Positions 29,901 to 32,900 of a DNA stretch of 64,000 nucleotides are shown here, piece after piece. Position numbers: made by a program. Within the stretch, counting starts at the first letter, position 1, and each line of letters begins with the position of its first letter. The DNA comes from Escherichia coli (GTDB taxonomy: Bacteria > Pseudomonadota > Gammaproteobacteria > Enterobacterales > Enterobacteriaceae): the NCBI RefSeq assembly GCF_016903815.1, contig NZ_CP069973.1, one strand, 5' to 3'.

Positions 29901-32900
29901 GGCGAGCGCAACTGCGTAAGCTAATCGTCGGTCAGTGGTTGATGGTGCTGACGCTTTCAGCCGTTACCGGTGGGGCGATAGGCCTGTTGTTCGAAAACGT
30001 GTTGATGGTGCTGCTCAAGCCCGTTCTGCCTGCTGCACTACCGCCAGCCAGCCTCTGGCCGTGGCTATGGGCGCTGGGCACCATGACGGTTATCTCGCTG
30101 CTGGTGGGGCTACGACCATACCGCTTGTTACTGGCAACGCAGCCTTTACGCGTATTACGTAATGATGTGGTCGCGAACGTCTGGCCGCTGAAGTTTTATC
30201 TGCCGATTGTCAGTGTGGTGGTTGTGCTGCTGCTCGCCGGATTAATGGGTGGCAGTATGCTGCTCTGGGCGGTGCTGGCGGGCGCGGTAGTACTGGCTTT
30301 GCTGTGCGGTGTGCTGGGCTGGATGCTGCTGAATGTACTTCGCCGCATGACGCTGAAATCGCTGCCTCTGCGCCTGGCGGTTAGCCGCCTGTTACGTCAG
30401 CCGTGGTCAACGTTAAGCCAGCTTTCGGCATTTTCGCTCTCCTTTATGCTGCTGGCGCTATTGCTGGTATTGCGTGGCGATCTGCTCGACCGCTGGCAAC
30501 AGCAGCTACCGCCAGAAAGCTCGAACTACTTTTTAATCAACATCGCCACAGAACAGGTAGAACCGCTAAAAGCGTTCCTCGCGGAACATCAGATAGTCCC
30601 GGAATCGTTTTATCCGGTGGTGCGGGCGCGGCTGACGGCGATTAACGATAAGCCGACAGAAGGTAATGAAGATGAGGCGCTTAACCGCGAACTCAATCTT
30701 ACCTGGCAAAATACGCGGCCCGATCATAATCCGATTGTCGCCGGTAACTGGCCGCCAAAAGCCGATGAAGTGTCGATGGAAGAGGGGCTGGCGAAACGCT
30801 TAAACGTTGCCCTCGGCGATACTGTGACTTTTATGGGCGATACCCAGGAGTTCCGCGCTAAAGTGACCAGCCTGCGCAAAGTGGACTGGGAAAGTCTGCG
30901 GCCTAATTTCTATTTTATTTTCCCTGAAGGGGCATTAGACGGGCAACCGCAGAGCTGGCTTACCAGTTTCCGCTGGGAGAATGGCAACGGCATGTTGACG
31001 CAACTCAACCGCCAGTTCCCGACCATTAGCCTGTTAGACATTGGCGCGATTTTAAAACAGGTCGTTCAGGTGCTGGAGCAGGTAAGTCGGGCGCTGGAGG
31101 TGATGGTGGTGCTGGTCACCGCCTGCGGTATGTTGCTGTTGCTGGCACAGGTGCAGGTGGGAATGCGTCAGCGTCATCAGGAGCTGGTGGTGTGGCGCAC
31201 ACTCGGTGCGGGGAAAAAACTGCTGCGTACCACGTTGTGGTGTGAGTTCGCCATGCTCGGGTTTGTTTCTGGCCTGGTGGCCGCAATTGGTGCGGAAACG
31301 GCGCTGGCAGTGTTGCAGGCGAAAGTGTTTGATTTCCCGTGGGAGCCAGACTGGCGATTGTGGATTGTGCTGCCGTGCAGCGGTGCACTGCTGCTGTCGC
31401 TTTTCGGCGGCTGGCTGGGCGCGCGGCTGGTTAAGGGTAAGGCGCTGTTCAGGCAGTTTGCGGGGTGATGAGAGTAAATAAGGGGCGTTCTGGTTGAATG
31501 GAACGCCTTGTTTAAATTAATTCTACAATATGTTTCATTGATGATGTTATTGAATTGGTGATTTCCTATCTTTCTATTGCTGATATTAATCTGAATCGGT
31601 GGAGTTTAATAATTTTAAATATAGCCCTACAAGAATAACTCAGACTAATAAAATCATAAACCATATGCGTTGAATGGATATTATCCATATAGTGAATTTG
31701 TTGATGATGAATTCATCTGTGCTAAAAATGTTAGTTTAATAAAATATTGAAAGTGACCTGTAATAACAGTTGTTGTTGATTGAGAACAAATAAGTTTATG
31801 TGAAAAATATATAAATACATTAGCTGGTCTTGTGTGTCATTTTATTTTTTTGTTGCTAACACAGGAATATGAACAATAACTAAAAGGGCACTTTATATGA
31901 GCGGAAAACCAGCGGCGCGTCAGGGAGATATGACTCAGTATGGCGGTCCCATTGTCCAGGGTTCGGCAGGTGTAAGAATTGGCGCGCCCACCGGCGTGGC
32001 GTGCTCGGTGTGTCCGGGCAGGATGACTTCGGGCAACCCGGTAAATCCGCTGCTGGGGGCGAAGGTGCTGCCCGGCGAGACGGACCTTGCGCTGCCCGGC
32101 CCGCTGCCGTTCATTCTCTCCCGCACCTACAGCAGCTACCGGACGAAGACGCCTGCGCCGGTGGGGATTTTTGGCCCCGGCTGGAAAGCGCCTTCTGATA
32201 TCCGCTTACAGATACGCGATGATGCACTGGTACTCAACGACAACGGCGGACGGAGCATTCACTTTGAGCCGCTGCTGCCGGGGGGGGCGGTGTACAGCCG
32301 CAGCGAGTCAATGTGGCTGGTTCGCGGTGGTAAGGCAGCGCAGCCGGACGGCCACACGCTGGCACGGCTGTGGGCGTCGCTGCCGCCGGATATCCGGTTA
32401 AGCCCGCATCTTTACCTGGCGACCAACAGCGCACAGGGACCGTGGTGGATACTGGGGTGGTCAGAGCGGGTGCCGGGCACTGAGGACGTACTGCCAGCGC
32501 CGCTGCCGCCGTACCGGGTGCTTACCGGGCTGGCGGACCGCTTCGGGCAGACGCTGACGTACCGGCGTGAGGCCGCCGGTGACCTGGCCGGGGAAATCAC
32601 CGGCGTGACGGACGGTGCCGGGCGGGAGTTCCGTCTGGTGCTGACCACACAGGCGCAGCGTGCGGAAGAGGCCCGCACCTCTTCGCTATCTTCTTCTGAC
32701 CGTTCCCGCCCTCTCTCAGCCTCAGCGTTCCCCGACACACTGCCCGGTACGGAATACGGCCCCGACAGGGGTATCCGCCTTTCGGCGGTGTGGCTGATGC
32801 ACGACCCGGCATACCCGGAGAATCTGCCCGGTGCGCCACTGGTGCGGTACACGTATACGGAAGCCGGTGAACTGCTGGCGGTATATGACCGCAGCGGGAC

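Follow-up and report, generated by a model that had tools for sequence, protein, structure and literature searches.

The AT-rich ybbP-rhsD interval and the single PAAR-type repeat of an Rhs toxin in Escherichia coli

Introduction

How could an Rhs protein that opens with a PAAR tetrapeptide leave the cell, and what does the extremely AT-rich DNA in front of its gene contribute? Both questions are raised by the rhsD locus, which follows ybbP in a stretch of Escherichia coli DNA of 64,000 nucleotides (contig NZ_CP069973.1; this whole stretch is referred to below as the window). An earlier note, made from the sequence alone, described a long AT-rich leader of the kind bound by H-NS, read the tetrapeptide as the sign of a PAAR-like spike domain, and asked how such a protein would be exported in a background devoid of a type VI secretion system (T6SS). 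Our analysis leads to the conclusion, to which we assign a probability of roughly 0.8, that the interval comprises the 5' control region and the beginning of an rhs toxin gene carried by a 6.87-kb island between ybbP and mnmH, with an H-NS-bound promoter, a single PAAR-type repeat and a T6SS as the route of export. These features belong to known biology, and the AT-rich spacer is an already published H-NS target.

Results

One PAAR-type repeat at the N-terminus

An in-frame stop lies 9 codons upstream of M1 of the rhsD open reading frame (ORF) with no start codon in between, and M1 is therefore the true start. The literal P-A-A-R is present, as had been noted, at residues 5-8 (nucleotides 31909-31920). 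The profile search that was to confirm the presumed spike domain did not do so: the Pfam profile PAAR_motif (PF05488; 70 positions, curated cut-off 27 bits) gave 17.1 bits with residues 1-120 and 19.4 bits with residues 1-47, the match being confined to profile positions 51-69 (19 of the 70). Residues 2-29 align with the C-terminal repeat of PAAR proteins of solved structure, namely 4JIV_D (residues 67-93 of 93), 4JIW_D, 9RCE_c (SalCis10; 71-98 of 99) and 8GRA_J. RhsD thus has one repeat of about 28 residues, compared with the three-repeat cone of about 90 residues found in the solved proteins. The repeat itself is a good one, since an artificial threefold concatenation of it scores 99 bits. 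What is left of the proposed PAAR-like spike domain is a genuine PAAR-type repeat, one of three, and not a complete domain.

The architecture was examined in homologues. A first, word-indexed protein search returned mostly E. coli fragments, which told us little on this point, while an exhaustive search of 1.84 billion representatives yielded 558 relatives, for which 262 sequences were retrieved. The PVNP motif that follows the N-terminal piece was found after exactly 47 residues in 163 of these 262 homologues, after 44-51 residues in 212, and after about 95-108 residues in eight. Three of these eight longer relatives (P0188, P0210 and P0171) contain three PAAR repeats (63-136 bits), followed by the same linker and plug. 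Residue 1 of RhsD aligns at about position 62 of these proteins, i.e. at the start of their third repeat, in front of which they carry about 60 extra residues. The first repeat of P0171 (MAGKPAARLGDGTEYGGPIVGGS) is almost the same as the RhsD N-terminus, which suggests that the short form may have arisen by an in-frame collapse of three repeats to one. The short form, start methionine included, is kept in Escherichia, Salmonella, Citrobacter, Enterobacter, Yokenella and Serratia, down to 49% identity. This conservation of the start methionine and of the 47-residue length identifies the short N-terminus as native architecture and not an annotation error. Its most conserved part comprises residues 30-47.

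These results bear directly on the possibility that a complete PAAR spike domain, functional and able to sharpen the tip of VgrG alone, makes up the N-terminus. The literal motif and the quality of the repeat are in its favour, and E. coli Rhs proteins have been called “PAAR domain-containing” in print (PMC7216683). It is very unlikely nevertheless, given the partial, sub-threshold profile match, the length of the segment and the additional residues present in relatives with a true PAAR domain. Moreover, the ORF cannot be extended upstream, and a motif scan that covered the window and the 50-kb T6SS locus (described below) detected no other PAAR-type ORF. To speak of a “PAAR domain” in E. coli Rhs proteins of the RhsD type is to claim too much, and “one repeat of three, Tse5-like” would describe them better.

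A second way of accounting for the short N-terminus is to regard it as a prePAAR-type motif (AARxxDxxxH) of the Eag-dependent class I Rhs effectors. Residues 6-15 fit AARxxDxxx, but have Y in place of the required H. According to the work in which this motif was defined (eLife/bioRxiv paper), the motif of class I prePAAR effectors is followed first by a transmembrane region and then by a PAAR domain, and an eag gene lies upstream. In RhsD the motif is directly followed by the linker and the DUF6531 plug, Pfam finds no PAAR domain, and no long hydrophobic run is seen in residues 1-47 (as read from the sequence, no transmembrane predictor having been run). The upstream neighbour is ybbP, together with the AT-rich gap. 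Of all the explanations considered here, this is the one to which we attach the least probability. The RhsA and RhsB proteins of Enterobacter cloacae were considered as experimental precedents for RhsD and set aside, as both have upstream eagR genes, which places them in the prePAAR class.

The AT-rich spacer and its promoter

The interval between ybbP and rhsD is as AT-rich as had been claimed. Its 428 bp have a GC content of 0.285 (28.5%; 0.269 for positions 31506-31896) against a window mean of 0.548, and form the lowest-GC stretch of this length in the 64 kb, with just 0.013% of such stretches equally low. There are seven runs of 8-19 bp composed only of A and T, and the density of TpA steps, 10.7 per 100 bp, is 2.6 times that of the window (4.1). 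The spacer is single copy in each genome and is present in 2901 of 5426 E. coli genomes; it is 98.2% identical to its counterpart in K-12. As an AT-rich tract exceeding about 300 bp on acquired DNA, it has the make-up of a “promoter island”.

The corresponding region of K-12 has been described in the literature. Panyukov and Ozoline placed ybbP(+)/rhsD(+) (522099, 304 bp) among 78 K-12 “promoter islands” (PMC3661553, Table 1), and marked it as H-NS-bound “according to all studies”, i.e. in the chromatin immunoprecipitation (ChIP) data of Grainger, Kahramanoglou and Oshima (PMC3661553). In the list of Shimada et al., the ybbP-rhsD interval has a promoter of the RpoD holoenzyme, TTAATA-17-TGTAAT, which carries the flag HNS (PMC3946193). 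The H-NS binding predicted in the earlier note is therefore supported and sound, but already published, for K-12 (PMC3661553, PMC3946193). The “long leader” fared less well: the AT-rich gap of 428 bp is real, but a terminator-like hairpin stands near its beginning, and the published promoter, present in the window as an exact string, would leave a leader of about 125 nucleotides, not 430.

We also compared the three rhs 5' ends available, i.e. those of rhsD, of a remnant at 37714 and of a vgrG-linked rhs gene. They are clearly similar from the start codon onwards, while upstream of the ATG the likeness is confined to the segment of the ribosome-binding site, which indicates that the sequences upstream of rhs start codons are locus-specific. 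The remnant has an AT-rich upstream stretch of its own, non-homologous to the rhsD spacer. An Rfam scan of positions 31000-32400 (E up to 1) gave no RNA family, and hence no known riboswitch or small RNA in the spacer. Only three ORFs in the spacer begin with ATG and reach 16 codons (21, 29 and 40 residues), all of them unsupported.

A T6SS in the source lineage

The window is not derived from K-12. It differs from E. coli strain 7/2 by 4 nucleotides across the 64 kb, and the rhsD region is 100% identical in strain 7/2 and in many clinical isolates. The aspV locus of strain 7/2 holds a complete T6SS, made up of tssA-M, a gene for a ClpV-like ATPase, tagH, two hcp genes and vgrG. A gene for a 1499-amino-acid Rhs protein with the same kind of short N-terminus lies 75 bp downstream of this vgrG, and there are three vgrG-like places in the genome. 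Moreover, all 20 of the 20 genomes that are 100% identical over window positions 31400-32100 also carry tssBC at 100% identity; tssBC of the aspV type was found in 2278 of the 5426 genomes.

Given that the window is so close to a strain with a full T6SS, including hcp, vgrG and a vgrG-linked Rhs, the puzzle of a “T6SS-less background” does not apply. K-12, for which the premise would hold, presumably lacks the aspV T6SS. Among the homologues, the short-N-terminus relative P0141 is encoded directly after a vgrG gene for 710 amino acids.

The idea that VgrG itself supplies the two missing PAAR repeats was rejected. The VgrG in question has 713 amino acids, and the approximately 137 residues past its gp5 domain show no Pfam match and no PAAR-type motif; in addition, the VgrG beside a relative with full PAAR is longer (818 amino acids), not shorter.

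The toxin end and the IS1 insertion

The ORF at the rhsD locus encodes an Rhs/YD polymorphic toxin. Pfam recognised RHS_repeat in 13 stretches (261 bits), DUF6531 and the RHS core (PF03527, residues 1154-1190), and a DPxG-X18-DPxG motif can be read in the translation ahead of the variable toxin end. The gene is not the rhsD allele of K-12, from which it differs both in length (1375 against 1426 amino acids) and in its toxin end.

The toxin-coding end is interrupted by a copy of IS1, flanked by an 8-bp target duplication (AGATTGCT, at 36012-36019 and 36788-36795). Excision of IS1 in silico gives an ORF of 1400 amino acids that ends at 36873-36875. The insertion is common to the closest genomes and missing in most others. 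As it removes the last 27 codons of the toxin domain, this copy of rhsD is probably crippled.

The toxin end together with the ORF for 163 amino acids that follows it (35720-37347) is 95.7% identical to the orphan rhs-CT/ybbD module found in K-12 downstream of rhsD. As judged from these alignments, the main toxin end has been swapped here, which is a case of C-terminal displacement. Pfam gave no match for the 163-residue ORF, the probable immunity gene. Pfam relates the toxin end to serum amyloid A, but only weakly and below threshold (17.6 bits, cut-off 30.8), and the same has been reported for z0651 of O157.

The state of the toxin end raises the question of whether rhsD is a spare part, stored in an H-NS-silent and non-exported form, that serves mainly as a recombination substrate or as an internal toxin-immunity module. 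The truncation by IS1 agrees with this, and so does the identity of the toxin-immunity pair with the K-12 orphan module, from which it follows that C-terminal swapping occurred. H-NS binding is on record (PMC3661553), and Salmonella rhs toxin ends are known to be expressed from internal promoters, independently of delivery (PMC7043789). Against it, the part of the gene devoted to delivery (N-terminal piece, plug and shell) is conserved and intact, its 4.1 kb being free of frameshifts, and the strain has a matching T6SS. We consider storage improbable as the whole explanation, although it is compatible with, and not exclusive of, the reading of the locus as the start of an rhs gene with a T6SS route.

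The accessory island and its surroundings

The end of ybbP (window positions 31330-31468) was found in 5417 of the 5426 E. coli genomes. In rhsD-less genomes, homology to the window is lost at 31475-31478 and regained at 38342. These break points assign the AT-rich stretch to island DNA: together with the rhs gene and all DNA through 38341, it is, to judge by the alignments, one accessory island and not backbone. The island is absent from about 2500 of the 5426 complete genomes (about half), in which 58-240 bp separate ybbP from mnmH. The features of the locus are collected in Table 1.

Table 1. Features of the ybbP-rhsD region (positions are those of the window)
Feature	Position	Strand	Remarks
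ybbP	29054..31468	+	ORF; same name in the annotation of strain 7/2; conserved backbone gene flanking the island on its left
AT-rich ybbP-rhsD spacer	31469..31896	+	428 bp; H-NS-bound “promoter island” in K-12
rhsD accessory island	31476..38341		about 6.87 kb; left junction right after the ybbP stop, right junction just before the mnmH stop
Terminator-like hairpin after ybbP	31482..31509	+	11-bp stem, then GTTTAAATT; consensus scan; on the island side of the junction
Published sigma-70 promoter for rhsD, TTAATA-17-TGTAAT	31736..31764	+	exact string read in the window; -35 at 31736-31741, -10 at 31759-31764
Shine-Dalgarno-like AAGGG	31884..31888	+	read from the sequence; 8 nucleotides before the ATG
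Rhs toxin ORF of the rhsD locus	31897..36024	+	1375 amino acids as it stands; stop codon from IS1
N-terminal 47-residue piece	31897..32037	+	Tse5-NT equivalent; putative self-cleavage N47|P48, just before PVNPLLG
Single PAAR-type repeat	31900..31983	+	residues 2-29; matched by the C-terminal repeat in PAAR proteins of known structure
DUF6531, N-terminal plug of the Rhs shell	32032..32265	+	residues 46-123; Pfam 67.6 bits
IS1	36020..36787	+	768 bp, in the toxin-coding end of rhsD; Pfam DDE_Tnp_IS1; annotated IS1 in strain 7/2
End of the rhsD toxin domain (last 27 codons plus stop), displaced	36788..36875	+	ORF restored by removal of IS1
Probable cognate immunity gene	36856..37347	+	163 amino acids, hydrophobic N-terminus; ORF overlapping the restored rhs end; assigned by position only
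Second rhs 5' remnant	37714..37809	+	ATG changed to ATT; second literal PAAR; incomplete hypothetical protein in the annotations of strain 7/2 and K-12

Several further observations were made in the window and at the empty site. The second rhs remnant is cut off by the remnant of an insertion sequence-type helix-turn-helix gene (ylbG). The empty site is itself variable: in strain LR-60 (L004, positions 6140-6380) the ybbP-mnmH gap is filled by palindromes resembling repetitive extragenic palindromes/bacterial interspersed mosaic elements (REP/BIME; GCCTGATGCG...CTTATCAGGCCTAC), whereas in another rhsD-less genome it measures just 58 bp. Positions 1-20025 are mostly taken up by one giant gene for a BapA/SiiE-like adhesin, which extends past the start of the window and is accompanied by genes for a type I secretion ATPase and an HlyD adaptor; this region is accessory, and its K-12 counterpart is only a short pseudogene fragment before cueR. 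The cueR-ybbJ interval (20430-22854) contains a YadA-family autotransporter adhesin gene and three hypothetical genes, none of them in K-12, as well as the second AT-rich patch of the window (22035-22594, GC below 0.33). The allD gene (ureidoglycolate dehydrogenase; 53435-54484) is a pseudogene with an internal stop according to the annotation of strain 7/2.

Discussion

The results can be assembled into a scheme of three steps. By homology to K-12, the spacer would hold a sigma-70 promoter about 135 nucleotides upstream of the ATG, and its H-NS coat would keep rhsD poorly transcribed under laboratory conditions; we infer such silencing for the window strain. In the protein, residues 2-29 are the equivalent of the third repeat of the canonical three-repeat PAAR cone. 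If RhsD behaves like its relative Tse5 (discussed below), residues 30-47 would pass through the DUF6531 plug into the Rhs shell, cleavage would occur before P48, and the exposed repeat would dock the toxin onto a cognate VgrG. Finally, an export route exists in the window strain in the form of the complete aspV T6SS, with its vgrG followed by a gene for an Rhs protein of like N-terminus.

A number of results weigh against this scheme. An AlphaFold2 model of residues 1-160, built from an alignment of 27 sequences, reached a mean predicted local distance difference test (pLDDT) score of 52.5, with values below 50 at residues 1-6 and 21-96 and no confident fold for residues 1-96; so weak a model fits a segment that may fold only in its context, and proves nothing. 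The short-N-terminus homologue P0161 has no adjacent vgrG. The N-termini of RhsD and of the aspV Rhs differ at about 11 of 47 positions, and the VgrG that accepts RhsD may be that of aspV or may come from one of the two other vgrG-like places in the genome. As regards the promoter, a consensus scan missed the published site and detected one site in all, against 1.5 expected in shuffled sequences, i.e. no enrichment beyond composition, while the high-affinity H-NS motif TCGATAAATT, with up to 2 mismatches, has one match in the spacer, which is not enriched and is uninformative. The H-NS binding data come from K-12.

A more general proposal would be that the whole clade of Rhs proteins with a short N-terminus (those of the E. 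coli RhsA-D type, the aspV vgrG-linked Rhs and Tse5) carries exactly one third of a PAAR cone, probably as a product of the collapse mentioned above. We regard this as doubtful, albeit less so than any of the rival explanations. If it were true, these effectors could not cap VgrG in the canonical manner. One option would be that three Rhs molecules give one repeat each and so form a cone on the threefold VgrG tip; another, that docking follows an as yet undescribed mode, in which the lone repeat extends the VgrG beta-helix on one face only.

For the locus itself, the findings matter little beyond correct annotation: this Rhs protein does not lack a secretion system in its host. RhsD and Tse5 both raise the question of how an Rhs cage of 150 kDa is mounted on VgrG by a single PAAR-type repeat.

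Comparison with known systems

Four kinds of known systems can be set beside the rhsD locus. K-12 rhsD occupies the same chromosomal site behind the near-identical spacer, and the first 145 residues of the two proteins are 96% identical. The longer K-12 protein has a different toxin end, and IS1 is inserted in the copy described here; the K-12 main toxin end and the ybbC immunity gene have been replaced here by K-12's own orphan module. The vgrG-linked Rhs of the aspV locus (WP_021516938.1, strain 7/2) resembles RhsD in its short N-terminus, PVNPLLG and plug (81% identity over the first 145 residues), and differs from it in having another toxin end and no AT-rich spacer of its own.

In the canonical PAAR proteins (VCA0105, 4JIV; c1882, 4JIW) it is the third repeat that matches the RhsD pattern GKPAAR.GD....GG.I..GS..V.IG. 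Three repeats, spanning about 90 residues, are present both in these proteins and in P0188, P0210 and P0171, all of which exceed the Pfam threshold, whereas RhsD has one and stays under it.

The closest characterised relative, and the best solved match to RhsD, is Tse5 of Pseudomonas aeruginosa (PA2684, RhsP1; PDB 8CP6). Like RhsD, it has a 47-residue N-terminal piece starting with MSG.P, PVNP(L/M)LG at residue 48, a DUF6531 plug, a YD-repeat shell and the DPxG-X18-DPxG protease motif, and RhsD thus shows the Tse5-like architecture in its piece of about 47 residues, its PVNP(L/M)LG and its plug. The N-terminal piece of Tse5 (Tse5-NT, MSGLPVSHVGEKVSGGVISTGSPTVHVGSSAVGLADRVSACVPLVGK) is homologous to that of the RhsD type by way of P0253 (E = 7.5e-8), and the first residue of 8cp6_B, the Tse5 shell chain, is P48, aligned to P48 of RhsD. 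Tse5 is cut between K47 and P48, so that Tse5-NT comprises M1-K47, and DUF6531 was identified as the plug in its structure (PMC10684867). This plug anchors residues 30-47 in the shell, and residues 1-29 show disorder; secretion requires the 5-kDa piece, for which the term “cryptic PAAR-like domain” has been used (PMC10684867, PMC9637101, PMC7376260). Self-cleavage at the junction and VgrG/T6SS-dependent secretion have been shown for Tse5 only (PMC10684867), and by analogy cleavage of RhsD may take place at N47|P48, with residues 1-29 making the contact to VgrG. In Tse5 the literal PAAR seen in RhsD is lost, with PVSH in its place, and the toxin domain is an unrelated pore former. Moreover, tse5 is linked to vgrG1c, while rhsD stands alone behind its AT-rich spacer.

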